A DNA stretch of 64,000 nucleotides from an uncultured Gammaproteobacteria bacterium (lineage in GTDB: Bacteria; Pseudomonadota; Gammaproteobacteria; Steroidobacterales; Steroidobacteraceae), in the NCBI GenBank assembly GCA_963747035.1, contig CAVVDL010000010.1, forward strand, positions 1,851 to 65,850. Direction: 5' to 3'. Under the pieces are notes generated by a model. That model did no database searches and was not told the origin of the DNA. It saw only the letters and a program-made list of their open reading frames with translations. Numbering within the stretch: position 1 is the first letter of the stretch; each line of letters opens with the position of its first letter. This document shows positions 3,348 to 51,316 of this stretch, piece after piece. The position numbers and the translations under genes were made by a program.

Positions 3348-3926
3348 TTGAATAGCAAGAAGTGCGCGATGCTCGCCACCGCGATTGCCCTGCCGCTCTC
3401 GATCGCCGCGGCGCTCGCTGCCGAAAGCCCGATGGCGTCGGATACGAAGATCGCCTGCAGCGAAGTCAAGTACAGCTCGGAATTCCTGAGCAAGTATCCG
3501 GACGCGCCGGCCGCGTGCATCGAAGCGGTCGAGAAGGAAGGCAAGCGTTACGCGAAGTTCACCGCCCGCGTGTTCCTCAACAGCGCTGACCGCACCACGG
3601 TCGAGTTGCTGAACGCGCACGGCGACCCGCTGACGACATTCAGCTTCAAGCCGGCCCCGGATGCGGGCGTCATGATCGACGGCAAGAAGACCAAGTTCAC
3701 GGACCTCAAGAAGGGCGAGAAGATCTCGTTCTATGTCTCCGCGGATCGCCTGACGGCTTCAGAGCTGCCGGGTGCGACGGAAGACTCCTGGGCCGTGCTG
3801 CCGCCGCCAAGTAATCGGGTTCGAGGCATTCTCAAGGGTCCGGTGCGGTTGCACCGGACCCTTTTTCTTTGTCAGTCGGCGGCAGGCGCCGTCGTCGCGA
3901 CCGGCGTGATCTCGAGATCGTGGTAG
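3348..3926 (+). CDS. hypothetical secreted protein, duplicate copy 2 (ORF as read 192 aa; probably ends near 3814)
   Basis: Nearly identical to copy 1 up to AVLPP. A 2-nt length difference (CCGCCGCCAAGTAA versus CCGCCCCAGTAA) puts the copy-1 TAA out of frame. The ORF then reads through its own terminator hairpin and overlaps the convergent gene by 55 nt. Confidence 0.6.
   Translation: MNSKKCAMLATAIALPLSIAAALAAESPMASDTKIACSEVKYSSEFLSKYPDAPAACIEAVEKEGKRYAKFTARVFLNSADRTTVELLNAHGDPLTTFSFKPAPDAGVMIDGKKTKFTDLKKGEKISFYVSADRLTASELPGATEDSWAVLPPPSNRVRGILKGPVRLHRTLFLCQSAAGAVVATGVISRSW
3836..3870 (+). terminator. rho-independent terminator of copy 2
   Basis: GGGTCCGGTGC-ggtt-GCACCGGACCC (11-bp perfect stem) followed by TTTTTCTTT. 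Confidence 0.7.
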
Positions 3927-5456
3927 TCGAAGCTGAAGTCCGCGACCGGCGAATACGCCTTCATCGTGATGCGCGAGGGCTTCCCCGCGGCATCGAGCGC
4001 GAAGCTCACGAACGCCGGCTCGATCAGCGGATCCGGCCAGCGCGCGACGAAGGTGTCGTAGGCCCAGTGCTCGAGCGGCGCCACCATGCCGGGCGTCTGC
4101 TTGAAGTCGATCGAGAGCTGTCCATTCGATTCCGTCACGTCGATCGGCCCGTACCACGGGTCGGCGTAGTGGCCGGCGTAGCCGGCGGGCGGCAGCGAGG
4201 GCTTCGACTCGGGCCGTGACGCGCTTGCCGCGCGCTGTGCCTCGAGGCCGGCGGCGTTGCGCGCGTCGAAGAGTTCCTTGAAGGCCTTCGGCCAGTCGTG
4301 CTTCGGCAGGCCGAGATAGTGGTCGAGGAGCTCGTACTCGAGGCCCGGCACGAACTCGTTGTCCTCCGAGTTGTTGACGATCACGAAGCCGGTGTTCTTC
4401 TCGGGGATCAGCACGACCACCGTGCGGAAGCCCTGCGTGCCGCCGCCGTGCTGGATGATCTTGTGGCCGCGGTAGTCCTGGACGATCCAGCCGAGGGCGT
4501 AGCCGCGAAACTGCGGCGTGGCGTCCGCCAGGGACGGCGGGCAGCGGCGTCAGCGGCACCGGCACGACCGGCTGCCACATCTCGGCCGCGTTCGCGGCGG
4601 AGTACAGGTGCTTGTCCGAGCCCGGGATCTGGCCGGCCGCGAGCTGCACGAGCAGCCAGCGGCTCATGTCGTTGGCGCCGGCCGCGATCGCGCCGGCCGG
4701 GCCGCAGTTCGCGCCGAGCTTGACCCTCTGCTCGTCGAAGAGCTGCTGCGGTCCGACGCCGCGCAGCTCGCCGTTGCGGCCGTGCGGGAAGGCGCGGTCC
4801 GGGGCGACGAGACGGTCCACGTCGTTCGTGACGCTCTTCGTCATGCCGATCGGCTTCAGGATCCGCTCCTCGGTGAACTTCTCCCAGGTCTGGCCGGTGA
4901 CTTCCTCGATCAGCTGGCCGGCGACCATGTAGAGCACGTTGTCGTAGGCGAATGTCGAGCGGAAGCTGGTCGCGGGCTTCAGGAATTGCAGCCGGCGCAC
5001 GGAGTCGGCGCGCCCGAGGTTGTTGAACGGCACGAACAGCAGGTCGCCCTGGCCCTTGGCGAGGCCGGCGCGGTGCGTGAGCAGGTCCCGGATCGTGAGC
5101 TCGCGCGTGACCCAGGCGTCGTACATGCGAAAGCCGGGCAGGTGGTCGATCACCTTGTCGTCCCAGCCGATCTTGCCTTCCTCGACGAGGATGGCGAGCG
5201 CCGCGCTCACGAAGGCCTTCGTCGTCGAGCCGATCTGGAACAGCGTGTCCGCGTCCACCGGCTCGCTCGAGCCGAGCTTCCTGACGCCGTAGCCGCGCGC
5301 GAGCGTCACCTTGCCGTTCTCGACGATGGCGACGGCGGCGCCGGGCACCTCCGAGGCTTTCATGACCGCCTCGACGCGCGCGTCGAAATTCTTCGGCGGC
5401 GCGGCGAGCGCGAGGGACGGCAGTGCGGCGATCAGGACGGCGACGAAGATGCGCAT
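3872..5456 (-). pseudogene. secreted serine hydrolase, beta-lactamase/transpeptidase fold (one frame break; pseudogene or assembly indel)
   Basis: The N-terminal part is in the frame of ORF 3759..5456 and has a signal peptide, an SxxK motif (STTK) and YDN. The C-terminal domain is in ORF 3872..4420. The frames join at PLTPL|PPSLADATPQFRGYALGW. Deleting one G from GGG 4539-4541 restores the frame. Confidence 0.75.
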
Positions 5457-5474
5457 GAGAATCTCCGGGTCAGG

Positions 5475-6584
5475 TCAGGCGGCGGCTGCGGCGGGTCGTC
5501 TCGAGAGGCGCCAGACGCCGACGGTGAGGAGCGGCAGCAGGAAGGTCGCGATCAGCAGCCAGGCGAGCCACCGATAGCCGTTCGCGATCAGGGCCACGAG
5601 GCCGAACTGCTGCGCGGCGAAGATCGCGACGACGAGGATGGCAATGGTGCAGGCGAAGCGCTGTGCGGGCGGGAAGCCGCGGCCGCGCTCGGCGAGGCGC
5701 CCGCGATGCGCTCGTTGACCGCGTGCACGGAGCTCACGCTGCTCTGCAGGAGCGCCGCGAAGATCATGACCTGGAAGGCGCCGTGCAGGAGCGGCAGGCC
5801 CATCTGGCGCAGCATGAAGTCCGCCGGCAGCACCTCGGCGCCGATGCCGGGATAGAACGCCATCATGCAGCAGAAGAAGAGGAGTGCCGGGATGATCGCG
5901 AGCGGGCCGGCGAGCAGGCCCGAAACGACGGCGTCGCGGTCACTCGTCAGGTGCCGGAGCATCGGCAGCACCACCGCGGCGGCGACCGCGTTGTAGCTCG
6001 CGTACGTGATCCCGGCGCCGACCCAGCTGCCCGAGCCCGCGGCGTTGCGCGCTGGAAACTCGCTCCGATCTCCGTGCCGAAGCGCTGGAAGCCGAAGATC
6101 ACGAAGAGCGCATAGACGCCGTACAGGAAGAACGAGGCGTACTTGAAGAGCCACTCGACGCTCTTGTTGCCGAACGCCGTGAAGGCCGCGATGAGCGCCA
6201 TGAGGAGCGAGGACGCCCGCGATCGTCGGCCAGCCGAACATCGCCTCGCCGAGCGCGCCGGCGGCCGCGCCGTAGACCGCGAGGATCAGGATGAAGAAGA
6301 AGACGTAGCAGCCCTCGAAGGCGAACCAGGCGCGGCCCGAGGAGCGCGCGGAAGAAGGGACGGTAGTCATAGGCGCCGATCCTGCGCGCGAGCAGGAAGG
6401 CCACGACGCAGATGAGGCTCCACAGGCCCATCGCGAGCGCCATCGCGGCGACGCCGCCCCAGGGACCGAGCGGCACGAAGAATTCCGCGATCTCGCGGCC
6501 GGTGGAGTAGCCGCCGCCGATGACGACGGCCTTGAATGCGAATCCCGGGAGCAGGAAGCGCTGGAACCAGCTCGGGCGCGTCAC
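5475..6584 (-). pseudogene. YkvI-like polytopic inner-membrane protein / putative permease (about 4 frame breaks)
   Basis: Hydrophobic segments are spread over ORFs 6099..6584, 5588..6370 and 5947..6201, plus an unlisted tail ending ..GYRWLAWLLIATFLLPLLTVGVWRLSRRPAAAAA*. The N-terminus FKAVVIGGGYSTGREIAEFF resembles YkvI-type proteins. Its GTG start overlaps the DUF1611 stop (GTGA at 6581-6584). Confidence 0.55.
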
Positions 6585-7595
6585 GAGGCGAGGCAGGACT
6601 CGACGAGCCGCTCGAGGGCGGCGCCGCCGCGCATCGGGTCCGCGACCGGCAGGCCGAGCGATTGCGCGACGCCCTGCATCAGCGTCTCGGCCGCCGCAGG
6701 CCGCAGCGACGCGGTATTGAAGCTGACGCCCGCGCAGCGGATCTTTGCGTTCGTGAGCGAGCCCATCGCGACGTGGCGGGCAATCGCTTCAGGCAATGAC
6801 GGCGTCGGGAAGTCCGGGTAGCCGAGCAGGTGCTCGCGGCCCGGCTCGTGGCAGAGCACGAAGACGTCCGGCTGGCTGCCATGCAGGAGGCCGAGCGAGA
6901 CGCCCGCGTAGGCCGGGTGAAACAGCGAGCCCTGGCCCTCGATCACGTCCCAGTGGTCCGGAGCGGCGTCGGGGCTCAGGATTTCCGCGGCGCCCGCCAC
7001 GAAATCGGAGATCACGGCGTCGATCGGCATGCCGCTGCCCGCGATCATGATCCCGGTCTGGCCCGTCGCGCGGAATTCCGCGTCCACGCCGCGCCGGCGC
7101 ATCGCGCCCGTGATCGCAAGCGCGGTGTACTTCTTGCCGAGCGCGCAGTCCGTGCCGACGGTGAGCAGGCGCTTGCCGGTCCTCTTCCGGCCGGTGCCGA
7201 CCGGGAATGTTCGGCGGAGGCTGGCGCACGTCGATGAGGCGGCGTCCCAGCCGTTCGGCGGCGGCCTTGAGCTCGGGCGAGCCTGCCAGGCGCCCGTGCA
7301 TTCCCGAGACGATGTCGAGTCCCGCTTCGAGGGCCTCGACGAGGCTCGGGATCCAGTTCGGCTTCAGGACGCCGCCGGTGTTCGCGACGCCGATCACGAG
7401 CGAGCGGGCGCCTCGCGCCTGCGCCTCGCGCGGCGCGAGCCTCGGCAGGCCGGCGCTGACCGTCGCTTCGGGCAGCGCGAACTCGCCGATGCACAGGTCG
7501 CGCGCCCAGTCGCGCAGGCCAAACGCCGTCTTGGCGTACCCCGCCTCGGTCGTATCTCCCAGGAACAGGAGATACGGCGCGGGCAGGGTGACCAC
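6581..7595 (-). pseudogene. DUF1611-family protein (DgcN-like putative N-acetyltransferase), copy 1 (one frame break)
   Basis: It has PYLLFLGD..IGVANTGG..LEAGLDIVSGMH in one frame and GTGRKRTGKRLLTVGTDCALGKKYTA..FRATGQTGI..WDVIEGQGSLFHPAYAGV in another. Removing one G from GGG 7203-7205 joins them. It is ~65% identical by eye to the intact paralog at 28221..29225. The GTG start at 7595 was inferred from alignment to that paralog. Confidence 0.75.
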
Positions 7596-7672
7596 GAGCG
7601 ACGCGGATCCGGCGTCAGGGACGCTGGAGGTGCGGACTGCCGACAAGACGCTCTCCCTGCGCGGCCGGCCCG

Positions 7673-10028
<2,356 letters not shown>

Positions 10029-10054
10029 GTTCCCCCTCGGTGGTCGATTGGCGC

Positions 10055-11201
10055 TCAGGCCCAGATGGTGCCCAGGAGCCGCCGGAAATTGCCGCCCAGC
10101 ACGGACTCGATGTTCGAGTCGCCGTAGCCGCGGCGGATGAGTGCCTCGGTCAGGTCGAAAACCTTCTTCGGATGGTCGAAGCCGTCGGTGTCGAGCTTGT
10201 CGCGGAAGGCGTAGCTCGACTTGTACGACGCCATCAGCTCCTTGCGCTGGTCGGCCGGCATGTCGTCGTAGCCGTTGAGGTCGGAGTCCGAGCCGATGCC
10301 GACGTGCTCGATGCCGACCAGCTTCACGACGTGGTCGATGTGGTCGACGATGTGCTCGATGGTCGTCGGCTCGCGGTCGCGCACGAAGTTGCGCACGCCC
10401 GTGATGCCCATGACGCCGCCCCTGGCCGCGAGCTTCGTGATCGCCTCGTCGGTCTTCAGGCGCGGGTGGTTGTTGAGCGCGCGGCAGTTCGAGTGCGTGA
10501 TCGCGATCGGCTGCTTCGAGAGCTCGATCGCGTCGAGCGTCGTCTTGTCGCCGCAGTGCGAGGCGTCCACCAGCATGCCGGTCTCGTTCATCGCGGCGAT
10601 GATCTCGGCGCCGAAGTCGCTGACGCCGCCGTCCACGCGGTCGGTGCCGCCGGTGCCGAGGAAGTTCTGGCTGTTGTAGGTGAGCTGGGAGCACGCGCTG
10701 GCCGAGCTGGAAGAAGGCCTTCACGTCCTCGGCTTTCTGGAAATGCTCGGAGTTCTGCACGCCCATCATCACCGCGCACTTGCCGGCGGCCTTGGCGCGG
10801 TCGAGGTCGGCGGCCTTGTCCACGACAGAGAAGAGATCGGAGTTCCGCGCGCAGAATCCCTGCCACGCGGCGAGGAAGGTCAGCGTCTCCTCGACGGCCT
10901 GCGGGCCCCCGGTGCCGACGGAATTGTGGAAGCCGGTGATGCCGCAGGTCTTGAACTGCGCGATCTCGGCCTCGGTGAGCGGATTCGCGTAGGCCTCCGG
11001 CTTGAAGTTGATCTTGAGCACGGCCAGCATGTCGATCACGAGCGAGCGCTCGACGATCGCGATCGCGCGCGCGGAGTAGGCGGCGGGGCTGTCGGCGAAG
11101 AGGCGGAACGAGGCGAGGTTGAGCATCGGGAAACCGATGCCGAGCGCCGCGCCCTGGAGCACGCGCCGCCTCGAGACCTGACCCGCCCTGGACTGAGCCA
11201 T
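10055..11201 (-). pseudogene. membrane dipeptidase, peptidase family M19, Tat-exported (one frame break near 10687)
   Basis: The N-terminal part (ORF 9969..11201) has a twin-arginine motif SRRRVLQGAALG. The C-terminal part is ORF 10055..10636, with SHCGDKT, ITHSNCRAL and IGSDSDLNG. The junction reads GQR|CSQLTYNSQNFLGTGG. Confidence 0.8.
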
Positions 11202-11235
11202 CCCACCCCTTTCGGGAAAAATATCCCAGCCAGAG

Positions 11236-11263
11236 ATTTTAATCCTGATTGGAGAATTGTCAA
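11236..11263 (-). promoter_or_regulatory. sigma70-type promoter for the M19 dipeptidase-TBDR-DUF1611 operon
   Basis: Read on the minus strand: TTGACA (11263-11258), 16 nt, TAAAAT (11241-11236), ending 34 nt upstream of ATG 11201. It overlaps the perfect palindrome GAATTGTCAATTC (11254-11266). Confidence 0.55.
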
Positions 11264-11282
11264 TTCAGCGCGGAATCCGCGC

Positions 11283-12272
11283 TCAGGCTGCGGCGCCCCA
11301 GCCCGAGTCGGGATAGGAGACCTTGCCGTTCTCGAAAGCCATCGCGGGCGTGCGATCCCGCGTGATGAAGAGCGTGCCGTCGAGGTCATTGATGTCGCAG
11401 AGCTGGCCGAGGATCCAGGCCGGCGCCATCGCGAGGCTGGTTCCGACCATGTTGCCGACCATCACGCCGAGGCCCAGGCGTCGCGCCTCCGCGGCCATCG
11501 CGAGGCCTTCGGTGAGGCCGCCGCACTTGTCGAGCTTGATGTTGACGATGTCGAAGCGGCCGACGAGCGGCTCGATGTCCGAAAGCCCCTGCACGCTCTC
11601 GTCCGCGGCGACCGGGATCGGGCAGCGCAGGCCGTCGAGCTCCGCCTCGCGCCCGCGCGCGAAGGGCTGCTCCACGAGCTTCACCTTGCAGGCCACGAGA
11701 TCCGGCATGAGGGCGGAAAGGCTGTCGGCATTGAAGCCCTGGTTGGCGTCGACGCCGATCCAGGCGTCGGGGCGCGCCCTGCGCACGGCGCGCACGCGCT
11801 CCGCATCGAGCGGCAACTCGCCGGTCAGCTTCAGCTTCAGGGATTTCGCCTGGGCATAGGCGATCGCCTTTTCGGCCATCGCTCCCGGGTCGTTGGCCGG
11901 AATCGTGAACGTGGTGAGGAGCGGGCGAGGGCGCTCGAGACCGGCGATCCGCCAGACCGGCTGGCGGAGGCGCTTCGCCTCGAGGTCCCACAGCGCGCAG
12001 TCGAGGGCATTGCGCGCGCCGCCGGGCGGCAGCAGCCGGCGCAGCGACTCGCGGTCGACGCCGGCCTCGATGTCGCGGCGCACGTGCTCGATCGCCGTGC
12101 ACATGCGGTCGACGTCGTCGCCGAGGTAATAGACGCCCGCCGCCTCACCCTCGCCGGCCGCGCCGCGCTCGCTGATGCGAGCGACGACGGCCGACATGTC
12201 GGTGAACGTGTACCCCGTGATCGTGAACGGGGCCGAGAGCGGGATCAGTTCCCGCGTGACCGACAGCTGCAT
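11283..12272 (-). CDS. dipeptide epimerase (enolase superfamily, MLE subgroup; L-Ala-D/L-Glu epimerase-like)
   Basis: Starts at the internal ATG (M41 of ORF 11283..12392), which overlaps the upstream stop (TGATG at 12270-12274). It has KxK (SLKLKLTG), metal ligands in IGVDANQG / LVEQP / VAADES, a second catalytic Lys (NIKLDKCGG) and a DLD motif near the C-terminus. The ORF is intact. Confidence 0.8.
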   Translation of the reverse strand: MQLSVTRELIPLSAPFTITGYTFTDMSAVVARISERGAAGEGEAAGVYYLGDDVDRMCTAIEHVRRDIEAGVDRESLRRLLPPGGARNALDCALWDLEAKRLRQPVWRIAGLERPRPLLTTFTIPANDPGAMAEKAIAYAQAKSLKLKLTGELPLDAERVRAVRRARPDAWIGVDANQGFNADSLSALMPDLVACKVKLVEQPFARGREAELDGLRCPIPVAADESVQGLSDIEPLVGRFDIVNIKLDKCGGLTEGLAMAAEARRLGLGVMVGNMVGTSLAMAPAWILGQLCDINDLDGTLFITRDRTPAMAFENGKVSYPDSGWGAAA

Positions 12273-14270
12273 CAGTAGTTCGTGCTGATGCCGACCAGGT
12301 GGTAGGCGATCGCAACCCAGGCGCAGATCGCCGTCGCGAAGACGAGCGCGACCGCCCAGATCTTGCCGAGCCAGCGCTTGTTCGCCTTCCACACGACCGA
12401 CAGGTGCCAGAGCGCGAGCACGAGGCCCGCAAACACGGCGATCGTGCCGAACACGTGCACGAGCAGGACCAGCCAGTCGAGCCGGTCCGACAGCAGCTTG
12501 AGGTCGGCGAACATCGCGAGGATGGTGCCGATCCAGCCGCCCATGGCCGCGAGCGAGAGCAGCGCGCCGATGCGGCCCCAGCGGTAGGCCTTCGCCTCAC
12601 GTCCGGTATACGGCAGGGGCTTGCGGTAGCGGCGGCGCACGAGCGCCGCGACCGGCCAGAAGATCACGGTGAGCGCGAGCACGACGAGGCTCGCGACCGC
12701 CGCCGGCATCAGCCAGCCGACACCCTTCGCGCCGGAGGAGCGTTCCATGTACATGAACGGCGAGATCCACTCGGGTGCGAACCGCACGACCCGGCCGTCC
12801 TTGACCTCGGCGGCGAGCCGGCCCTTGCCGTCCACCTCGCGCCAGACGTAGGGCTGGATTTCGCGCCACTTCGTCGGCTCGCCATTGAGGTCCTTCAGCA
12901 CCGGGAAGGAAATCGTCCCGTCCTCGTTGACCGAGACTTTCACCGGCTGCAGCAGGTTGAGGACGCTCATGAAACTCGTTTCGGCGCGGCGCGAGCTGAT
13001 GTAGCTGCCCGCGATCTCGGCGGCATGCGCCTTCGCGGTCGCCTCATCGACCTTGCCTTCCTGCGCCGGGCCCGGGAAATAGCGGTCCGCGAAGCTGCGG
13101 TAGAACGCCTCGCGCAGCGGCCCCACGGCGCCTTCCTTGCCGGCGCTGCTGAACGAGATGAAGTAGCCGACGCCGTCGTCGACGAACAGGTGCAGGTCGC
13201 TGTGGAAGTACTGCGTGTCGCCGCCGTGGGAAATGATGCGGTGGCCGTTGGTGCTCGTCTCGTAGAACCCGAGCAGCATCCGGTTGACGTTCGGGAGGAT
13301 CGTGAGCGGCGTGCCGTGCATCTTCTTCGCGGTTTCCTCGGAGAGGATGCGCTGGTCGCCGAACGCGCCATTCTGCAGGTGCGCGATCATGAACTTCGCC
13401 ATGTCGGCGCCGGTGGCCGCGAGCGCGCCCGCGGGCGCGAGGTTGATCAGCTCGTAGCCCTGCGGCTTGCCGGTGGCGTTCTCGTAGCCATTCGCCATGC
13501 CGGCCATGAGCGATTGCGGCAGCGGCTGCCGAAACGAGGAATGAGCCATTCCCAGTGGGGAGAAGATGTGCTGGTCGAGGTAGTCGTCGAAGGTCTGGCC
13601 CGAGACGCGCTCGACGATGTAGCCGGCGAGGCCGGTCGCGTAGTTCGAGTAGGCGGGCATCGTGCCGGCCTTGAAGATGCGGACCGGCACCCAGCGCTTG
13701 ACCGTGGCGCCGAGCGGCACGAGCCTGGAAGGATCCTCGGAAATCAGCTCCTTGACCGCTTCCTCGAACCCGGCGGTGTGCGTCATGACGTCGCGCATGC
13801 GGATCGGCTCGCCGTCCGGGCCGGGCGGAATCTTGAAATCGAGGTACTGGTTGATGTCGGCGTCGAGGTCGATCTTGCCTTGCTCCACCAGCTGCATGAC
13901 CGCGGTCCAGGTGAAGAGCTTTGAAATCGAGCCCGGGCGGAACAGCGTCGCCTCGGGGTCGACCGGCTTCTTCTTCTCGACGTCGGCGTAGCCGAAGCCC
14001 TTCTCGAGCAGCACCTGGCCGTCCTTCACGACCACGACGACGCCGCCCGCGATGTTGCCCTTCGCGATCGCGAAGGGGATGAAGCCGTCGAGCCAGGCTT
14101 CGAGGTCCGCGCGGTTCAGCTGCGGGCCGGCCGGCGTTTCGAGCGGCGGCGGGTGCCACGGTCGCGGGAGGCGTAGCAGCCGCCTTCGCTGACGGCGGCA
14201 CCTGCGCGAACGCAGCAGCCGAGAGGAGGCAGGCAGACAGAAATGTCGCGATCGGAGAATAGACGCGCAT
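12272..14270 (-). pseudogene. serine hydrolase (beta-lactamase fold) with a C-terminal 4-TM membrane anchor (one frame break near 14145)
   Basis: The signal peptide MRVYSPIATFLSACLLSAAAFAQ is in the frame of ORF 13044..14270. The body is ORF 12272..14035, with SxxK (SISK), YSN and four hydrophobic helices in the last ~150 aa. The junction reads VAP|PPLETPAGPQLNRADLEAWLDGF. Confidence 0.75.
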
Positions 14271-14303
14271 GCGTAAGTCCCGGGTGGTTATCCTGATAAG
14301 GTC

Positions 14304-14333
14304 ATGGTAGTCCTAATTGGAGAATGACGTCAA
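14304..14333 (-). promoter_or_regulatory. sigma70-type promoter for the serine hydrolase-epimerase operon
   Basis: Minus-strand reading: TTGACG (14333-14328), 18 nt, TACCAT (14309-14304), about 34 nt upstream of ATG 14270. The spacer carries ATTCTCCAATTAGGA, a 14/15 match to the spacer of the 11236-11263 promoter. Confidence 0.45.
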
Positions 14334-14353
14334 AGGGTGCCTCGCCGTAAAAT
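14324..14353 (+). promoter_or_regulatory. candidate promoter of the XRE-cupin regulator (would give a leaderless mRNA)
   Basis: TAAAAT at 14348-14353 ends 6 nt before ATG 14360, and there is no Shine-Dalgarno. A -35-like ATGACG lies at 14324-14329 (18-nt spacer) inside the palindrome TGACGTCA (14325-14332). Confidence 0.4.
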
Positions 14354-14359
14354 CAGGGC

Positions 14360-15037
14360 ATGACACCCACCAAGCCGCACCGGCCGACGCTCGGAAGCCT
14401 CCTGCGTGGCCTGCGCCTGCGAAATCACTGGACGCTCAAGGAGATGAGCGAGCGCACCGGCATCCCGCTCTCGACGCTTGCGAAGGTGGAGCACGACCGG
14501 CTCACGCTGACCTACGACAAGCTGCTCCAGTTGAGCCAGCGCCTGAACCTGCGCATGTCCGATCTTTTCAGCGAGGCGGACGGGGCAGCCGATGCGCCCA
14601 TCACGGCGCGCCGCTCCATCGGGCGGCTGTCCGACGCGATCCGCGTCAACACGCCGAACTACGAATATTTCTACATGTGCCCGGAGCTGCGCCGCAAGCG
14701 CATGGTGCCGACCGTCACCCGGATCCGCGCGCGCAGCGTCGAGGAGTTCGGCGAGCTCGTCCATCATCCGGGCGAGGAGTACATCTACGTGCTCCAGGGC
14801 CCGGTCGAGATCCACACCGAGTTCTACGAGCCGATCCTGCTGCAGACGGGCGAGTCCATCTACATCGACAGCACGATGGGTCATGCCTACGTCGCGCCGA
14901 AGGGGCACGACGAGGCGCTGGTCCTCGGCGTCTGCTCGAGTGCGGAAGACGGCCTCATGGAATCGCTGATGACGCTGCACAGCGACCAGCCGCGGGCCAA
15001 GGCGAAGAATGCTAAGCGGCTGACGTCGAAACGCTGA
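14360..15037 (+). CDS. XRE-family HTH transcriptional regulator with a C-terminal cupin domain
   Basis: 225-aa intact ORF. The N-terminal HTH reads LRGLRLRNHWTLKEMSERTGIPLSTLAKVEH. The C-terminal cupin-like part reads HHPGEEYIYVLQGPVEIH..GESIYIDSTMGH. Confidence 0.85.
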   Translation: MTPTKPHRPTLGSLLRGLRLRNHWTLKEMSERTGIPLSTLAKVEHDRLTLTYDKLLQLSQRLNLRMSDLFSEADGAADAPITARRSIGRLSDAIRVNTPNYEYFYMCPELRRKRMVPTVTRIRARSVEEFGELVHHPGEEYIYVLQGPVEIHTEFYEPILLQTGESIYIDSTMGHAYVAPKGHDEALVLGVCSSAEDGLMESLMTLHSDQPRAKAKNAKRLTSKR

Positions 15038-15903: not shown

Positions 15904-17944
15904 CGCCCACGCATCGCCTGGCTCGCCGTCCTCGCGCTCTTCGCGCCGCTCTCGCAGGCCGCCGAATCGGTCGCCGCGCCGCCGGTCGAGAGCTGTCCCG
16001 ACAACGCGAGCGCAAGCCGCGCCTACTCGTTCTTCCTCGCGGGCAACCGCGCGGGCTACCACCTCGAGTGCCGCATGCCGGACGGCTCGGGCCTCTATAT
16101 CTTCGAGTTCAACGACCGCGGCCGCGGCCCCTCGGTCCGTTCGCGCATCGTGCAGGACGCGGCCGGCATCCCGACCGTGATCACGGTCGACGGCAACGAC
16201 TATCTCAAGAACGAAATCGCAGAGCGCTTCTCGGTCGAGAAGGGCAAGGCCGCCTGGAAGAACAAGGTCGAGCAGGGCGACGCGGAATCTCGAGGCGCCT
16301 GCGTTCTACCTGAGCCAGTCGGGCACGCCGGCGGAGCTGCCGATGCTCGCGAAAGCCGCGTTCGCGGCGCCGGGGCACAAGTTGCCGCTCCTGCCCTCGG
16401 GCGAGGCGCGCGTCGAGGCGCTCGACGTGCGCACGGTCCGGAATGGCGATGCATCGAAGCAGGTCCAGCTCTACGCGGTCTACGGCCTCGGCTACCAGCC
16501 GACGACGGTGTGGCTCGACGACAAGGGCGAATTCTTCGCGAGCCTCGACAGCTGGGTCGTGATGGTGCCGGAAGGCTGGGAGCCGGTGGCGCCGGAACTC
16601 CTCGAGATACAGGAAGCGCGGCTGACGGCGCTGCGCAGCGAGCAGGCAAGGCGCCTGCGCCAGGTTCCGGCCGGCCCGGTCCTCATCGAACACGCGAATC
16701 TCTTCGATGCCGAGGCGCGCGTGATGAAGCCGGGCAGCAGCGTTCTCCTCGAGGGCAACCTGATCCGCGCCGTCGGCGCAGACGGATCTTTCCCGGTGCC
16801 GGAAGGCGCATCGCGCATCGACGCCGCGGGACGCGCGCTCGTGCCGGGCCTCTGGGACATGCACAGCCACCCGGAACCGTCCGATGGCCTGCTGCTGCTC
16901 GCCGCCGGCGTGACCGGCGTGCGCGACATGGCGGCGGAGCCCGCCAAGCGCGAGCGCATGAAGACCTGGGAGAGCGACACGCTCGGGCCGCGCATCGTGT
17001 ACGCGGGCATCGTGGACGGGCCCGGCCCGTTCCAGGGCCCGACGCAGGTGCTCGTCGCGAACGAAGCCGAGGCGCGCGCCGCGGTCGACGCCATGGCGGA
17101 CGCCGGCTTCATCCTCGTCAAGATCTACAGCTCGGTGAAGCCCGAGCTCGTGCCCATTCTCGTGGACGAGGCGAGGAAGCGCGGCCTTCGCGTCGGCGGG
17201 CACATCCCGGCCGGGATGACGGCGGAGCGCGCGGTGCGCGCCGGGTACAACGAAATCCAGCACATGAACATGCTGTTCCTCAACTTCATGTTCGACCAGG
17301 TGCCGGATACGCGCACCCCGGCGCGACTGACCGCGGTCGCCGAGCACGCGGCGGAGCTCGACTTCAATGACCCGAAGACGAAGGACTTCGTCGCGCTGCT
17401 CGTCGCGAAACACATCACGGTGGACCCGACGCTGCAGGTCTTCGAGAACCTGATCCTCGACCGCGCCGGCGAGATGGCGACCGCCTACAAGCCCATCGCG
17501 GACCGGCTGCCGCCGGTCGTGCGCCGCGGCCTGCTCGAGGGCGGGCTGCCGGTGACGGCTGACAAGGAGAAACGCTATCAGGATTCCTTTGCCGCGATGC
17601 TGCACATGCTGACCGTGCTGCACGACGCCGGCGTGCCCATCGTCGCGGGCACGGACGGGAGCGGCTTTGCGCTCATCCGCGAGCTCGAGCTCTACGTGAA
17701 GGCGGGCATCCCGGCGCCCGAGGTGCTGCAGATGGCGACGCTCGGCGCCGCACGCGCGGCGGGGCAGGGCGAACGCCTCGGCTCGATCGCGCCGGGCAAG
17801 CTCGCCGACCTCATCCTCGTGGACGGCGACCCGAGCACGGATCCCGGTGCGCTTCGTAACCTGCGCCTCGTCGTGAAGGACGGCGTGCCGATCGATCCGG
17901 AGGCGATGTGGCGCGAACTCGGGATCCAGCCGCTGCCGAAGTGA
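15898..17944 (+). pseudogene. secreted amidohydrolase-family protein with an N-terminal extra domain (one frame break near 16287)
   Basis: The signal peptide MQRPRIAWLAVLALFAPLSQA is in ORF 15898. The rest is ORF 16343..17944, with the metal motif PGLWDMHSHP and a C-terminal GTDGSG..GSIAPGKLADLILVDGDP. The junction reads GDA.NLEAPAFYLSQSGTPAELPMLAK. Confidence 0.75.
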
Positions 17945-17968
17945 GGACCGGGCTGGTGCGCGCGCCGC

Positions 17969-19187
17969 TCAGGCGAGCAGGTTCAGGAACAGCGTGATGA
18001 TGAGCGCGTTCGTGAAGTCGATGAAGAACGCGCCGACGATCGGCGCGACGAGGAACGCGCGCGGCGCGGGACCATAGCGCTCGGTCAGCGCGCGCATGAC
18101 GGCCATCGCATTCGCGGTCGTCCCCAGCATGAAGCCGATGAACCCGCCGCTCATCACGGCCGCTTCGTAATTGCCCCCCATCAACCGGAACACCGGGCCC
18201 GCGGCGGCGAGCGCCGCGATCACGACCTGCACCACGAGGATCGCGAGGAGCGGCAGCACGAGGCCCGGTCAGTTCCCAGAGCTTCAGCGTCATGAGCGCC
18301 ATGACGAGGAACAGGGTCAGCGACACGATCCCGAACGTGTTGATGAAACGATGCGAGAGGCTGAACCAGCCGGTCGCGTTGTCGATGTTGCGGATGACGG
18401 CCGCGACCAGCATCGCGCCGATGTAAGCGGGCAGCGTCATGCCGAGCGCGGCGAATCCCTTGCTGACCCAGAAGCCGATCCACATGGCGACCAGGATCGC
18501 GACGAGGTTCTTGATGATCGGCCATTCGTCGTCGTCCTCCTCCGACGCGGTGACCCGTGTCGTGACTTCGGCCTCGAAGAGTTCGATCTCGCCGGTTCCG
18601 CTCCCGGGGCGTCGCGGCGTCCTGAGGTTCCTGCGCTCGACCAGGACCGTGCTGACCGGGCCGCCGACCAGGCCGCCGAAGACGATGCCGCCGATCGCGA
18701 CCGCGATCGCGACGGAGGATGCTCCGGCGACGCCCGCCTGCTCGAAGAGCGGCGCGAAGGCGAGGCCCGTCGCAGGACCTCCTGTCAGCGTGACGGAGCC
18801 CGCGAGCACGCCGAAGAGCGGGTGCAGGCCGAATGCGATCGCCATCAGCATGCCGACGACGTTCTGCAAGACCGCGAACACGGTCGCGGCCAGGAAGAAA
18901 CGCAGCACCTGCGGCCCGCCGATCTTGAGGAGCGACAGGCTCGCGCCGAAGCCGATCGTCGTGAAGAAGGCGATCATGAGCGGGCTCTGCAGCGTCGTAT
19001 CGAACGTCACGAGCGTGACGCCCTGGCCGCGCGCGATCAGCACCGCGACCGCGACGAGCAGCCCGCCGAGCACGGGCGCCGGCAGGTTGTAGCGGCCGAG
19101 GACCGGGACGAGGCGCCGGAGCCAGTGCCCGAGGAGGAGCGCGACGCCCGCGAAGGCGAGCGTCTGTACGAAATCTAGTTCAAACAC
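17969..19187 (-). pseudogene. gltS: sodium/glutamate symporter GltS (one frame break near 18262)
   Basis: A GTG start sits 7 nt after AGGAG. The sequence aligns along its length with my memory of E. coli GltS (..GSVTLTGGPATGLAFAPLFE.., ..LFLVMALMTLKLWEL.., ..LVAPIVGAFFIDFTNALIITLFLNLL). The C-terminal 96 aa are in ORF 17969..18259. Confidence 0.8.
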
Positions 19188-20406
19188 CGATCGAGCTCCT
19201 GCATCAGGCGATCCACCTCGTCCTTCGACGTGTAGTGCACGAACGAGACAGCGGACGGCGCCATCCTCGGTGTCGATGCCGAGCGCCTGGATCAGCCGGT
19301 ACGCGTAGAAGTTGCCGACGCCGACACCGAGCCGCGCAGCGGCGAGCCGCGCCGCGACGTCCGCCGAGCTTTGTCCCTTGACCGTGAAGGAGACGGTCGG
19401 CGCCCGCTCGGCGGCGCGCGTGCGGCCGATCAGCCGCACTTTCGGGTGCTTCACGAGGAAATCGAGCAGCGGCTGCAGGAGTGCCGTCTCGTGCGCGCGG
19501 AACAGGTCGCGCACGGCCGCGGCGCGCGACTCGACCGGCTTGCCCTGCTGGCCGTGGCGGTCCGCGATGGCGTCCATGTAGTCGAGGACGCCGTTGACGG
19601 CGGCGATCTGCGCGTGGTCGGGGCCGGCCGGCGTGAACCGCGCGCCCGGCTTGCCGTCGTTGAAGAAATGGCCCTGGTTCGGCAGCGCCGCGTTGACCTC
19701 GCGCCGCAGGAACATCGTGCCGAGGTGCGGGCCGTACACCTTGTACAGGGAGAAATAGTAGGCGTCGACGCCCAGCGCCGCGAGGTCCGGCATGCCGTGC
19801 GGCGCGAACGCGACGCCGTCCACGAACGCCCAGGCGCCGGCCCGGTGGGCGAGATCCGTGAACTCCCGGACCGCGTTGATGCTGCCGACGACATTCGAGC
19901 AGTGCGTGAATGCGACGAGCTTCGTGCGCGGGCCGAGCAGCGCCTCGAGGCCCTGGCGCTCGAGCTCGGCGGTCTCGGGGTTGATCTTCCATTCACGCAC
20001 CGTGATGCCGTCCTCCGCCAGGCGCGAGTAGGCGCCGACGTTCGCCTCGTGGTCCTGGTTCGTCACGATGACTTCGTCGCCCGCCTTCAGGTGGCGCCGC
20101 AGCGCCTGCGCGAGCACGATAGGTGTTCTGCGACGTCGAGGGACCGAAGTGGATTTCGTCCTTGCCGACGTTGAGCCAGGCCGCCATGCGGGCCTTGGCC
20201 GCATCCATCTGCTCGCCCGCCGTGGCGGAGGCGGCGAACGCGTAGTAGGGCTGGACCTTGGTCTGCCGGTAATAGCGGTCGAGCCAGCCGATCGTCTGCC
20301 CCGCGGCATAGGATCCGCCGGCATTCTCGAAGTGCGCAAAACCCGCAAGCGTCGGCTCGCGGAATGCCGGGAACTGCGCGCGGACGAAATCCAGGTCCAG
20401 GTTCAT
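19175..20406 (-). pseudogene. class-V (fold type I) PLP-dependent aminotransferase / desulfurase-like enzyme (two frame breaks, near 20118 and 19240)
   Basis: The N-terminus is in ORF 19993..20406. The core is in the 845-aa ORF frame (..VTNQDHEANV..FTHCSNVVGSINAV..DAYYFSLYKVYGPH..). The last residues SFVHYTSKDEVDRLMQELDRCLN* are in a third frame. Its stop at 19175 overlaps the gltS start by 13 nt. Confidence 0.7.
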
Positions 20407-20537: not shown

Positions 20538-22453
20538 ATGACGATCGCCCGCCATCTCGTTCACGCTGCCCAAGGTCCTCGCGCTCGGACTCCTGGTCTC
20601 AGGCCAGGCCACCGCACAGTCGACCGCGCCGGCCTTCACGCCGAAGACGGACGAGTTCGACTTCGTCAAGCGCGAGGAGATGATCCCGATGCGCGACGGG
20701 GTGAAGCTCAAGACCTTCATCCTCGTGCCGAAAGGCGCCTCGGGCGCGCCCATGCTCCTGTCGCGCACGCCGTACAACGCCTCGAGCAGCGTCGCGCGCT
20801 TTGCGAGTCCGCACCTCGCGTCCGTCGTGCCGCAGATGTTCGACACCGCGGTCGCCGCCGGCTACATCATCGTGATCCAGGACGTGCGCGGTAAGTACGG
20901 CTCCGAGGGCGACTACGTCATGACGCGCCCGCTGCGCGGTCCCTACAACCCGACGGCGACCGACCATGCCACGGATACCTGGGACACGATCGACTGGCTC
21001 GTCAAGAACGTGCCCGAGAGCAATGGCCGCGTCGGCACGACCGGCGGTTCCTACGGCGGGTTCACCACCCTCATGTCCACGATCCATCCGCACCCGGCGC
21101 TCAAGGTCGCGGTGCCGTTCGCGCCCATGGTGGACGGCTGGATGGGCGACGACTGGTTCCACAACGGCGCCTTCCGGCAGGACGGCTCGCTCGAGTACAC
21201 CTACGAACAGGAAGCGAGCCGCAAGAACGAGCTGCCGTGGTGGACCGGCAACTACGACACCTATGAGTTCTACCTGCGCGCGGGCAATGCCGGCAATCTC
21301 GCGGCCTCTCACGGCCTCGAGCAGCTCGAGTACTGGAAAGCGCTCAGCGAACACCAGAGCTACGACGACTTCTGGCAGTCACAGGCGATGGACAAGGTCC
21401 TTGCGAAGGAACCGCTCACCGTCCCGATGCTGATCGTGAGCGGCCTGTTCGACCAGGAAGACATCTACGGCGGGCCCGCGCTTTTCAAGGCGCTCGCGCC
21501 GAAGGATCCGGACGGCAGGTTCATCCACCTCGTGCTCGGTCCCTGGAATCACGGGCAGGGCCGCCGCGAGGGGCGCGGCATCGGGATGGTGCAATTCGAG
21601 GGCGACACCGCCGGCTGGTTCCGGCGCACGGTGATGCAGCCCTTCCTCGATCACTATCTGAAGGATGGGCCGCAGCCGGATACACCGCGCGTGCTCGCCT
21701 ACGAGACGGGCGCCGACGTCTGGCAGCGCTACGACAACTGGCCGCGCTCCTGCGAGAGTGGTTGCAGCGCGAAGCCGAAGAATCTTTACCTGCAGGCGAA
21801 GGGACAGCTCGGCTTCGATCGTCCGGCGGATGCGAAGCAGGCCTTCGACGAGTACCTCGCCGATCCCGCGAAGCCCGTGCCGTACCGGAACCGTCCGACG
21901 CTGAACTCCGGCGCGCGCCGAATCCACCTGGGACGAGTGGCTGATGGATGACCAGCGCCAGGCCGCCTCGCGGCCGGACGTTCTCGTCTACGAGACAGAG
22001 CCGCTTTCGGCGCCGGTGCGCGTCGCAGGCGAACCCTGGGCAAGGCTCTTCGCGTCCACGACCGGCAGCGACGCCGACTGGGTCGTGAAGATCATCGACG
22101 TGTGGCCGGCGGAATTCCCGGACAATCCGAAGCTGGGCGGTTACCAGCAGATGATTTCCGCGGACATCTTCCGCGGGCGCTATCGCGAGGACTTCTCGAC
22201 GCCGAAGGCGATCGAGCCCGGCAAGGTGCTCGAGTACCGGATCCGGCTGCCGCAGGCGAACCACACCTTCGAGCCGGGCCATCGCATCATGGTGCAGATC
22301 CAGTCGAGCTGGTTCCCGCTCTACGACCGCAATCCGCAGTCCTTCGTCCCGAACATCGTGTTTGCGCCGCCGGAGAGCTACATCAAGGCGACGCAGCGGA
22401 TCTGGCGCACGTCGGGGCAGCCTTCGGCGATCGAACTGCCGGTCATCAACTGA
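20538..22453 (+). pseudogene. CocE/NonD-family hydrolase (peptidase S15, Xaa-Pro dipeptidyl-peptidase-like), secreted (two frame breaks, near 20559 and 21920)
   Basis: GGAGA SD followed by ATG 20538. The signal peptide ..FTLPKVLALGLLVSGQATAQS is in the next frame. The core is ORF 20680..21951, with MIPMRDGVKL and the nucleophile GGSYGGF. The C-terminal beta-sandwich is ORF 21944..22453 (RPDVLVYETEPL..SSWFPLYDRNP). Confidence 0.8.
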
Positions 22454-28220: not shown

Positions 28221-29225
28221 TCAGGCGGGAGACATAATGCGATCGACGATCGCCGCGACGCCGTGCCGGATGGGATCGCAGCAGGGCAATGACACGCGCT
28301 TCGAAACGTCGGCCGTCGCGCGCGCGGCGGCCGTCTCGTCGAGCTGCGAGGTGTTGAGGCTGACGCCCACGAATCGCGCCGCGGGATTCGTCAGGCGCGC
28401 CGCGGCGAGGTAGGCCTCGAAGCAGGCTTCGTAGGAAGGGATCGCAAAGCCCTCGTAGTCGGCGATGCCGGTGCGCGCAACGTCGTGGCAGAGCACCATC
28501 GCATCGGGCTGGCTGCCGTGGATGAGCCCGAGCGTCACGCCGGCGTAGGCCGGATGAAACAGCGAGCCCTGGCCCTCGATCACGTCCCAGTGTTGCGGTG
28601 CAGCAGGCGGGGAGAGCCATTCGGCCGCGCCCGAGACGAAATCGGAGACGACGGAATCCACGGCGATGCCGCGGCCCGAGATGAAGATGCCGGTCTGGCC
28701 GGTGGCGCGGAAATCGGCATCCACGCCGCGCGCGCGCAATTCCTTCTCGATCGCGAGCGCCGTGTATTTCTTCCCGACCGCGCAATCGGTGCCGACCGTG
28801 AGCAGGCGCTTGCCGCTGCGCTTCTGCCCGGTGCCGGGCATGAACGACTCGGCGGGCTGGCGCACCTCGATGAGCTGCCTGCCCGTGCGCCGTGCCGCTG
28901 CGGCAAGCTCCGGCACGCCCGCAAGCGGCTCGTGCAGGCCCGAAGCGACGTCAAGGCCGGCCTCGAGCGCGTCGACGATCGTCGTGACCCACTGCGGCGC
29001 GATGAAACCGCCGTCGTTCGCGATGCCGATGATGAGCGTCTTGATGCCGCGGCCGGCCGCTTCGCGCGGCGTGAGGTCCGGGAGCCCGAGGTCCACGCGG
29101 CATCCGGGCAGGCGCAGTTGCCCCGCGCACAGCTCGCCGCGCCACTGGCGGATGCCGGCTGCGGTCTTTGCCGTCGCGATGTCCGGCGCATCGCCGAGGA
29201 AGAGGAGATAGGGGCTCTGGATCAT
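28221..29225 (-). CDS. DUF1611-family protein (DgcN-like putative N-acetyltransferase), copy 2, intact
   Basis: Starts at the internal ATG (M32 of ORF 28221..29318): MIQSPYLLFLGD..IGIANDGG..LEAGLDVASGLH..GKRLLTVGTDCAVGKKYTA..FRATGQTGI..WDVIEGQGSLFHPAYAGV. Confidence 0.8.
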   Translation of the reverse strand: MIQSPYLLFLGDAPDIATAKTAAGIRQWRGELCAGQLRLPGCRVDLGLPDLTPREAAGRGIKTLIIGIANDGGFIAPQWVTTIVDALEAGLDVASGLHEPLAGVPELAAAARRTGRQLIEVRQPAESFMPGTGQKRSGKRLLTVGTDCAVGKKYTALAIEKELRARGVDADFRATGQTGIFISGRGIAVDSVVSDFVSGAAEWLSPPAAPQHWDVIEGQGSLFHPAYAGVTLGLIHGSQPDAMVLCHDVARTGIADYEGFAIPSYEACFEAYLAAARLTNPAARFVGVSLNTSQLDETAAARATADVSKRVSLPCCDPIRHGVAAIVDRIMSPA

Positions 29226-29292
29226 GGATTGCCGTTGCTTAGGCCTAACAGTTTGAATCAAAATCAGAATCTTGTCCCACCCGAGAATCCAG

Positions 29293-40730: not shown

Positions 40731-40819
40731 CAACGACTCGACTGGGTGGTGCTGGCTGATTGCAGCGCCCGATAGTGTACTCTCGCGCGTCAGCGACTTC
40801 GTCACCGCGGAGCACTCCC

Positions 40820-46562: not shown

Positions 46563-46563
46563 C

Positions 46564-51110: not shown

Positions 51111-51316
51111 GTCGTTGACGCAAACTCCCCGCGCAGCCCACCCCTCTTGGCGGGCTTTCGAGTGGACATATGTAGCCTCAGGCGGCCGGGGCCTAACTGT
51201 GAAGCGAGTCTGTATTCGGGGCCGGCCGAGTGACCGGTTCCACACTCCGGCCGCAAACTCAGGGTGGATTGGGGCGTTTGCCCCCGCAGGAGCCGTCCGC
51301 GGGCGGACCAGGCAGG

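Follow-up and report, generated by a model that had tools for sequence, protein, structure and literature searches.

Why should genes for an outer-membrane receptor, periplasmic hydrolases and an inner-membrane permease lie side by side with genes for two cytoplasmic enzymes of the kind found in D-glutamate catabolism? This question is raised by a locus at positions 3872 to 15037 of a 64-kb stretch of DNA from an uncultured member of the Steroidobacteraceae (contig CAVVDL010000010.1; G+C content ~68%), referred to below as the window. A preliminary description of the window had proposed the locus as a scavenging system for D-amino-acid-containing peptides. On the evidence presented here, the chances appear about even that it serves the substrate-inducible, TonB-dependent salvage of D-amino-acid-containing oligopeptides, in which inversion would proceed via DgcN/DgcA-like enzymes, with bacterial cell-wall debris as the most plausible source of the peptides.

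Gene content and conservation of the locus

The locus consists of seven minus-strand genes running from 14270 to 3872 and a divergent XRE-cupin regulator, all of which were found at or near the positions first given for them, with the predicted compartments of their products as originally laid out. The regulator gene (14360..15037, plus strand) is intact and encodes an XRE-type helix-turn-helix (HTH) domain joined to a cupin domain (Pfam HTH_3/HTH_19 and Cupin_2), a PuuR-like architecture. It is divergent from the hydrolase operon, whose first gene, BL1 (12272..14270), encodes an S12-type serine hydrolase with a Sec signal peptide and four C-terminal transmembrane helices (Pfam Beta-lactamase, 2e-59). 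BL1 is followed by EPI (11283..12272), an intact gene for a DgcA-like racemase/epimerase of the enolase superfamily, by a gene for an M19-family protein with a Tat signal that belongs to a divergent, 2I5G-like subgroup (10055..11201; Pfam Peptidase_M19 in two frames), and by the gene for a TonB-dependent receptor (TBDR; ~7676..10022) of the plug plus 22-strand barrel type, whose Pfam plug and barrel matches lie in different frames. The remaining genes encode a DgcN-like protein with a Rossmann-like DUF1611_N domain and a P-loop DUF1611_C domain (6581..7646), a YkvI-family (COG3949) inner-membrane transporter of predicted LeuT/APC fold that begins with a GTG start (5457..6584), and BL2, a secreted S12-type serine hydrolase with a DUF3471 domain (3872..5456; Pfam Beta-lactamase and DUF3471 in two frames). 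The coordinates of the open reading frames (ORFs) bear out the two gene overlaps noted earlier, TGATG at the BL1 stop and EPI start and GTGA at the DUF1611 stop and permease start. Where a gene is broken in frame, its product after frame repair is called repaired below.

One genome per species was scanned with the DUF1611 alignment, which gave 79 loci with DUF1611 proteins 62-79% identical to that of the window; partner genes were then sought by tblastn with window pieces in the 60 related loci that had adequate flanks. EPI was found in 52/60 of these loci, BL1 in 48/60, the TBDR in 43/60, the YkvI permease in 41/60, the XRE-cupin regulator in 40/60 and BL2 in 39/60. All six core partners of DUF1611 were present in 24/60 loci and at least five in 38/60, and the TBDR gene lay directly upstream of DUF1611 in 32/60. 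Accessory genes were those for M19 (17/60), a POT oligopeptide:H+ symporter (26/60) and a PRK09061-like amidohydrolase (29/60). The closest named relatives of the window locus are in the Steroidobacteraceae, and the gene set recurs in this family (Povalibacter uvarum included), in many Sphingomonadales, and in Caulobacter, Brevundimonas, Xanthomonas, Pseudoxanthomonas, Rudaea, Massilia and Duganella, a spread over Alpha-, Beta- and Gammaproteobacteria to which one metagenome-assembled genome (MAG) of the Verrucomicrobiota is added. On a 1.1-Mb contig the whole locus is found intact, with 81-88% amino-acid identity (TBDR, 72%), and in comparison with the intact locus L087 the regulator is 89% identical over 197 amino acids without a frameshift and BL2 is 86% identical. 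Judged by this recurrence, the arrangement is far beyond chance and the locus is a genuine gene cluster, conserved across several bacterial groups.

Gene order in the related loci is modular. In one common order the divergent regulator gene is followed by BL1, EPI, an optional POT or M19 gene, the TBDR, DUF1611, YkvI, BL2 and, optionally, the amidohydrolase; in the other it is followed by an optional M19 gene, the TBDR, DUF1611, BL1, EPI, an optional POT gene, YkvI and BL2. The POT symporter (TIGR00924, 261 bits) often stands in place of M19 and sometimes in place of YkvI, as in L011, L037, L050 and L067, which have POT without YkvI. Examples of the POT gene and of the gene for the cytoplasmic PRK09061-like amidohydrolase, both absent from the window locus, are found in L082 (7093-8442, 14811-16442) and L084 (7268-8557). 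In plasmid-borne copies the labels given by the Prokaryotic Genome Annotation Pipeline (PGAP) are all generic: XRE regulator, serine hydrolase, dipeptide epimerase, peptide MFS transporter, TonB-dependent receptor, DUF1611 protein, hypothetical protein, serine hydrolase and amidohydrolase.

The DUF1611/enolase pair

The two cytoplasmic enzymes had been linked to DgcN and DgcA, a lead that proved right at the family level. The repaired DUF1611 protein scored 455.6 bits against the NCBIfam DgcN model (NF041892; cut-off 480, not reached), and intact orthologs scored 449-460 bits. It covers profile positions 1-320 of 326, has the P-loop GTDCALGKKYT and the DUF1611_N + DUF1611_C architecture, and matches PDB 7XRJ with 342 bits. 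EPI matched the NCBIfam model racemase_DgcA (NF042940) end to end with 361.2 bits, and against the same model its Povalibacter ortholog scored 383.4 bits, both under the cut-off of 400. Against the NCBIfam L-Ala-D/L-Glu epimerase model (PRK15129) EPI scored 229.6 bits (cut-off 343), against E. coli YcjG (1JPD) 205 bits and against NSAR/OSBS 47-64 bits. The idea that EPI is an L-Ala-D/L-Glu epimerase was thus not sustained, since it is closer to DgcA and passes neither cut-off. Close homologs are named 'D-glutamate N-acetyltransferase' and 'L-Ala-D/L-Glu epimerase / N-acetyl-D-glutamate racemase' by JGI. The proteins of the TBDR loci are 64-72% (DUF1611) and 55-68% (EPI) identical among themselves across classes, and ~50% and 37-46% identical, respectively, to the canonical proteins, whose genes are adjacent in Vibrio, Pantoea and Sphingobium. 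By these comparisons, EPI and DUF1611 are a sister clade of the N-acetyl-D-Glu racemase DgcA and the D-Glu N-acetyltransferase DgcN, and the pairing of DUF1611 with an enolase-superfamily protein is kept in both clades.

The catalytic set of EPI is kept (K146/K148 of the KxK motif, K246, and D175/E201/D224) and is invariant in the alignment with canonical DgcA. The C-terminal DLD (DxD) motif, regarded previously as a dipeptide-ammonium-binding signature, is present in canonical DgcA, YcjG and 4GFI as well; it does not discriminate between them and gives no pointer to a dipeptide substrate, and we rejected it as evidence of one. In the window and nearly all of the 63 orthologs inspected, the 20s loop reads PF[RT]I[ST]G[YHF]xF as opposed to ISRGS[RK] (ISRG[ST/V][KR] in canonical members), and the 50s loop reads GEAxGVYY (GE[AG][AG]GV[YF][YF]) as opposed to GEC.PY.RYGES (GEC.P..RY[GD]E in canonical members). 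The 20s loop is without the Arg/Lys of DgcA and L-Ala-D/L-Glu epimerase, and the residue aligned with YcjG Arg24, which we take to be the binder of the Glu side chain (gamma-carboxylate) in L-Ala-D/L-Glu epimerases, is Phe throughout the clade. The replacement of this Arg by Phe makes a non-acidic substrate possible, and with both capping loops unlike those of either DgcA or L-Ala-D/L-Glu epimerase, the D-residue may be one other than D-Glu; the D-glutamate substrate suggested by the earlier lead is therefore not assured. A tentative reading, whose chances we would place somewhat short of even, is that the pair forms a separate orthologous group with re-tooled loops, inverting a non-Glu D-amino acid or a D-residue inside a short peptide, and that together with the TBDR, two S12 D-peptidases, YkvI/POT and an XRE-cupin operator it makes up an undescribed 'D-peptide utilisation locus'.

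The enzymatic core is of a kind described in 2023, and what appears to be new is the TonB-centred ensemble, the operator and the re-tooled EPI loops. The DgcR-DgcN-DgcA pathway of D-glutamate catabolism was reportedly described by Yu et al. in 2023 (ISME J 17:537) in Pseudoalteromonas sp. CF6-2. It shares with the window locus a DUF1611 acetyltransferase and an enolase-superfamily racemase under a dedicated regulator, end-to-end DgcN/DgcA matches, and what would be an irreversible D-to-L conversion via an N-acyl intermediate. It differs in that both proteins of the window locus fall under the cut-offs, belong to an identity group of their own and have changed 20s and 50s loops, and in that the DUF1611 and EPI genes are usually parted by the TBDR gene, whereas the canonical pair is adjacent. 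In canonical dgcN-dgcA loci the transporter is of the ABC or DAACS type, and one of these loci has a LysR regulator, in contrast to the TBDR, two S12 hydrolases, YkvI/POT and XRE-cupin regulator found here. On plasmid p-A-Sy of Sphingobium yanoikuyae (L086, 2165-11282), canonical dgcN-dgcA lies beside genes for LysR, an amidohydrolase, a TBDR and a dicarboxylate/amino-acid symporter; another S. yanoikuyae strain has the TBDR-locus type, so that both systems can coexist within one species. The DgcN/DgcA route is cited here by way of PMC12363236 and PMC10845958. In the searchable literature we found no description of the TonB-centred ensemble, the operator or the re-tooled loops, where overlap with figures of the primary DgcN/DgcA paper is possible; the preliminary description likewise knew of no characterised system in which such functions are organised around a TBDR. 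Literature on SAR86, on marine TonB-dependent transporters (TBDTs) and on peptidoglycan recycling in Caulobacter had no bearing on the locus.

YcjG and YkfB of murein-peptide recycling belong to the same enolase subgroup as EPI, with the KxK motif, second Lys, D/E/D ligands and DxD motif kept. They differ from it in the bit score (230 against a cut-off of 343), in both capping loops (ISRGSR to I[ST]G[YHF]xF and GEC.PY.RYGES to GEAxGVYY) and in their MpaA/YkfC-type partner, which is absent from the window locus. The N-succinylamino-acid racemase pathway of Geobacillus kaustophilus, said to have been described by Sakai et al. in 2006, acylates a D-amino acid, racemises the N-acyl form and ends with an L-specific deacylation. 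This three-step logic with an enolase-superfamily racemase is similar to the one considered here, but its acyltransferase is a GNAT protein and not DUF1611, it is without outer-membrane uptake and periplasmic peptidases, and EPI is far from NSAR/OSBS. In the carbohydrate utilisation (CUT) loci of Xanthomonas and the polysaccharide utilisation loci (PULs) of Bacteroidota, a TBDR is co-transcribed with a regulator of its own, with periplasmic hydrolases and an inner-membrane transporter, and with catabolic enzymes of the cytoplasm; these loci are thus TBDR-centred sets of the same component types, although for a glycan and not, as would be the case here, a peptide, and with glycoside hydrolases in place of S12 hydrolases. 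Unlike in a Bacteroidota PUL, the Pfam and NCBIfam annotation of the locus contained no SusD-like gene, and the TBDR is not of the SusC type (37 bits against the SusC/RagA model, cut-off 368). In Pyrococcus horikoshii, D-allo-Ile induces a YkvI gene together with a racemase (PMC13628549). This BAR cluster resembles the window locus in combining, under common control, a carrier of the YkvI family, an enzyme that inverts stereochemistry and a repressor that senses a ligand, all for the use of D-amino acids; it differs in being archaeal, with a broad-specificity pyridoxal-phosphate (PLP) racemase and an FFRP regulator, and in having no outer membrane, TBDR, peptidases or N-acyl intermediate.

Envelope proteins, regulation and a possible route

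BL1 and BL2 both match Pfam Beta-lactamase (PF00144) with E-values of ~1e-59 and keep the SxxK, YxN and HxG motifs (SISK, YSN and HGG in BL1; STTK, YDN and HGG in BL2). The nearest PDB entries of BL1 are Pab87 (2QMI), Flp, alkaline D-peptidase and ClbP, and those of BL2 are IS11, ClbP, R61 DD-peptidase and D-amino-acid amidase, so that the two beta-lactamase-fold hydrolases recognised at the outset can be described as S12-type enzymes with D-stereospecific peptidases among their nearest solved relatives. Class C beta-lactamases are also among the nearest solved relatives of the two hydrolases; against the NCBIfam model bla_class_C the two proteins scored 56-83 bits, under its cut-off of 415, and they are far under the cut-offs of all beta-lactamase models. 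The layout of BL1, with a signal peptide and four C-terminal transmembrane helices, is ClbP-like.

The M19 protein matches Pfam PF01244 with 38 + 188 bits in two frames and carries a twin-arginine leader. The proposal of a Tat-exported M19 dipeptidase was therefore correct in family and export signal, but the gene is optional in related loci and the canonical metal ligands are replaced. We take the binuclear-zinc ligands of the M19 family to be the N-terminal HxD and the bridging Glu; in the window, L028, L046 and L087 the sequence IDMLA stands in place of HxD, and VQN, with Gln, in place of the bridging Glu. PDB 2I5G (GFQNA) likewise has Gln for the bridging Glu and no HxD motif. With both replaced, it would be unsafe to credit the protein with the activity of a classical renal-type dipeptidase. 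A second M19 protein of the window (51320-52282) keeps the bridging Glu.

The TBDR was recognised by its plug (Pfam, 1.3e-18) and pieces of its barrel. Once repaired, it aligns end to end with receptors of 758-777 amino acids, is 69-72% identical to intact orthologs and ends in ...GVRF, with the final Phe. Its best NCBIfam match is a siderophore-receptor subfamily, at 178 bits (cut-off 223.5). No Pfam or NCBIfam model matched the permease even at E = 1; source names and fold served to identify it instead. In its repaired form it shares 89% identity with intact 368-amino-acid proteins named YkvI by JGI, NCBI and UniRef, these names are carried by proteins 60-89% identical to it, and the AlphaFold (AF2) model of a homolog (pLDDT 86) gave Foldseek TM scores of 0.6-0.7 to AdiC, BasC and LAT1. 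By name and modelled fold, the permease is a YkvI-family carrier with the amino-acid-transporter (LeuT/APC) fold.

Two promoters of the locus contain a common box, ATTCTCCAAT[TC]AGGA, between the -35 and -10 elements. The first (14286..14333, minus strand), before BL1, has a -35 of TTGACG (14333-14328), the box ATTCTCCAATTAGGA (14325-14311) and a -10 of TACCAT (14309-14304), with a second half-box, TTATCAGGATA (14299-14289), whose ATCAGGA lies about two helical turns downstream of the first box. The second (11225..11263, minus strand) has TTGACA (11263-11258), the box ATTCTCCAATCAGGA (11257-11243) and a -10 of TAAAAT (11241-11236); it is the near-consensus promoter noted earlier 5' of M19 and, as TTGACA-16-TAAAAT, agrees with the consensus at 11/12 positions. 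The exact 15-nt box has only two sites in the 64 kb, both in these promoters, and no operator site was found elsewhere in the window, including near its second DUF1611 gene. In 29 related loci the motif TTGACA..ATTyTCyrATyAGGA occurs 41 times, always gene-oriented, upstream of BL1 (23), M19 (9) or the TBDR (9). This recurrent shared motif supports the existence of two co-regulated transcription units and, together with the relatives that hold all six core partners, upholds the view of the locus as a conserved, co-regulated unit built around the TBDR. The XRE-cupin protein is probably a repressor acting at the predicted boxes of both promoters. Its two-domain architecture is that of PuuR-type repressors, and the overlap of boxes and promoters is what one would expect of a repressor; it scored 26 bits against the PuuR model (cut-off 211) and is thus not an ortholog of PuuR, whose operator also differs.

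The following route is what we infer from protein families and folds, signal sequences and gene context. The TBDR would carry the peptide across the outer membrane, and the two S12-type hydrolases, BL1 anchored in the membrane and BL2 soluble, would trim it in the periplasm, with the divergent Tat-exported M19-family hydrolase as an accessory. The product could then pass the inner membrane via the YkvI-family LeuT-fold carrier, to which a POT di/tripeptide symporter may be added, or for which it may be substituted, in many relatives; the presence of this symporter inside 26/60 related loci supports peptide transport. In the cytoplasm, the DgcN-like DUF1611 protein would N-acylate the D-residue, the DgcA-like EPI would invert its alpha-carbon, and a deacylase would free the L-amino acid, the candidate in about half of the related loci being the cytoplasmic PRK09061-like amidohydrolase. 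The XRE-cupin protein may hold the two promoters off via the ATTyTCyrATyAGGA boxes until binding of a pathway metabolite by the cupin domain releases it.

A large, slowly turned-over share of the organic nitrogen of soil and ocean consists of D-amino acids and peptidoglycan remnants, and the known DgcN/DgcA route accounts only for the cytoplasmic fate of free D-Glu. If the proposed route is true, a conserved regulon would join TonB-powered uptake and D-specific trimming in the periplasm to DgcN/DgcA-like inversion, and abundant lineages, among them Steroidobacteraceae, sphingomonads and xanthomonads, would be able to harvest D-peptides directly. Four poorly understood families, the YkvI carriers, DUF3471-tailed S12 hydrolases, 2I5G-like M19 variants and the sub-threshold sister clade of DgcN/DgcA, would gain roles open to experiment, and the 'D-peptide utilisation locus' would be for peptides what polysaccharide utilisation loci are for polysaccharides, with a wide distribution among Proteobacteria of soil and fresh water. 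With an operator predicted, the regulator can readily be tested.

Several points weigh against this interpretation. EPI and DUF1611 are both under the NCBI equivalog cut-offs, PGAP names the EPI orthologs 'dipeptide epimerase', and the changed loops of EPI leave neither N-acetyl-D-Glu nor L-Ala-D-Glu assured as a substrate. The beta-lactamase fold also covers esterases and true beta-lactamases, and the M19 protein is without the canonical zinc ligands. In loci with POT and without YkvI, it may be a peptide, and not a free D-amino acid, that enters the cytoplasm, and neither an L-specific deacylase nor a PRK09061-like amidohydrolase is encoded in the window locus. Finally, one frame break, that in BL1, could be real.

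Frame breaks and competing explanations

Frame breaks were counted by frameshift-aware protein-to-DNA alignment against intact orthologs. About 31 were found in total, in six of the seven minus-strand genes: 1 in BL1 (~14147), 0 in EPI, 1 in M19 (~10692-10694), 22-24 in the TBDR, 1 in DUF1611 (7205), 4-5 in the permease and 1 in BL2 (~4535-4541). The same aligner called 0-2 breaks in intact relatives. After frame repair, the alignment to intact orthologs contained no in-frame stop codons, and the repaired TBDR shows no excess amino-acid divergence, being 68% and 49% identical to the outgroups L028 and L010, compared with 66% and 48% for the intact TBDR of L087. Nearly all of the breaks are missing from contig L089, whose population is 96% identical to the window. 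This contig has no indels relative to the window in XRE, BL1 and EPI, its M19 gene is intact (the break in the window is one extra G), and its TBDR is in two pieces only. The DUF1611 break is read straight through by a 97%-identical protein, and a 99%-identical protein exists elsewhere for EPI. Unrelated genes of the window are split as well: a TPR + Sulfotransfer_3 gene (34960-36131, plus strand) is spread over three frames with junctions at 35205/35207 and 35746/35754, and a second TBDR plug is split at 39335/39337. These provide independent evidence for indel errors outside the locus. From the absence of stops, the normal outgroup distances, the genes split elsewhere, the comparison with L089 and the read-through of DUF1611, the frame breaks are probably sequencing or assembly artefacts and not decay. 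Homopolymer collapse was rejected as their cause, as homopolymer frequencies are those of Illumina-assembled relatives.

Two features of the breaks call for separate comment. The TBDR region (window 7593-10054) is 9.4% divergent from L089, as against ~1% in the flanks, with 77 indel positions and 231 mismatches. There are too many indels per mismatch for natural mutation, and the bias of the mismatches to third codon positions (112/219) suggests that the window carries a truly divergent receptor allele. The region has the appearance of a receptor allele that is hypervariable or was exchanged, with most of the indels in the same stretch, and it is plausible that the indels piled up from a long-read consensus over mixed alleles. 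The BL1 break at ~14147 lies in a GC-rich Ala/Pro linker that joins the signal peptide to the mature domain; it is common to the window and L089, which are of the same population, and absent in L087 and L028, and may be a systematic error or else genuine in this lineage.

A decaying, non-functional locus in which the breaks are real mutations would explain why so many genes are hit, why the BL1 break recurs on an independent contig of the same population and why the TBDR region is so divergent. The preliminary description had itself named a dead locus as the outcome that would overturn its proposal. The breaks do not point to one: zero in-frame stops remain after repair, the repaired TBDR is as near to the outgroups as an intact one, the ratio of indels to mismatches and the third-position bias are as given above, L089 has an intact M19 and a TBDR in two pieces, the DUF1611 break is read through, and unrelated genes are split too. 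We regard decay as very improbable indeed, and pseudogenisation specific to the locus was rejected on the genes split elsewhere, the equal outgroup distances, L089 and the intact relative. Scarcely less improbable is a role in defence or detoxification, in which beta-lactams, or non-ribosomal peptide antibiotics or siderophores with D-amino acids, would enter via the TBDR and be inactivated by the hydrolases, the cytoplasmic enzymes disposing of the D-residues. S12 D-stereospecific peptidases are known as resistance enzymes against non-ribosomal peptides, which counts for such a role, as do the weak matches to class C beta-lactamases and ClbP-type peptidases and the siderophore-receptor subfamily as best match of the TBDR. 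However, the beta-lactamase matches (56-83 bits, where 415 or more would be needed) and the siderophore match (178 of 223.5) are under their cut-offs, nutrient-type POT/YkvI transport and a stereo-inversion pair are more in keeping with catabolism than with resistance, the XRE-cupin regulator is of a kind that senses small molecules, and no efflux component was found in the locus.

Classical murein-peptide scavenging is a stronger competitor, though still unlikely. Fragments of the L-Ala-gamma-D-Glu stem peptide would be delivered by the TBDR and periplasmic DD-/LD-type hydrolases and imported by POT/YkvI, EPI would be a dipeptide epimerase like YcjG/YkfB, ordinary peptidases would finish the degradation, and DUF1611 would only mop up free D-Glu. 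The matches of EPI to YcjG and to the L-Ala-D/L-Glu epimerase model (205 and 230 bits), the PGAP name of its orthologs, the frequent POT transporters in related loci and the resemblance of the S12 hydrolases to AmpH and DD-carboxypeptidases are all consistent with this. On the other hand, EPI scores higher against DgcA than against the epimerase model and is under both cut-offs, the position of YcjG Arg24 is Phe throughout the clade, and neither an amidase, an LD-carboxypeptidase nor a gamma-D-Glu-DAP peptidase was found in the annotation of the locus genes. That DUF1611 and an enolase-superfamily protein are tightly paired in both clades also speaks for a reaction sequence shared by the two enzymes.

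Other genes of the window

A second DUF1611 gene (28221-29318, minus strand) is intact and passes the DgcN cut-off (485.2 bits; cut-off 480); it is 58% identical to the copy in the locus and has no enolase partner alongside and no operator box. Divergent from it are genes, all on the plus strand, for a D-aminopeptidase-like S12 hydrolase (29470-30560), a PRK09061-like amidohydrolase (30809-32221) and an S9/PD40 peptidase (32143-34782). The window is rich in peptide-degradation genes, which also include Peptidase_S15, S51, M49-like, Amidohydro_3 and the second M19 (20554-21930, 39699-40760, 41454-42479, 46561-48255 and 51320-52282). The second TBDR (~37700-39510) is also broken.

An amidohydrolase gene (16343-17944) and a GltS symporter gene (17975-19200) were considered as members of the locus and rejected, as they are not conserved; the amidohydrolase was found only in the close relative L005. 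The ORF at 17811-20348 (minus strand), which contains a piece of a class-V aminotransferase and the GltS sodium/glutamate symporter, neither of them conserved beside the locus in relatives, is probably two genes fused by an indel. Further genes encode a PAS-GGDEF-EAL protein (48306-51119, minus strand), a TRAP transporter with TAtT and DctP in one ORF (56739-60192, plus strand), and a phosphotransferase system (PTS) EIIC protein with a PEP-utilising enzyme (60913-63476, minus strand). The end of BL2 is separated from the convergent plus-strand gene by a GC-rich 13-bp hairpin (3834..3863), which is followed by a T-run on the plus strand only.

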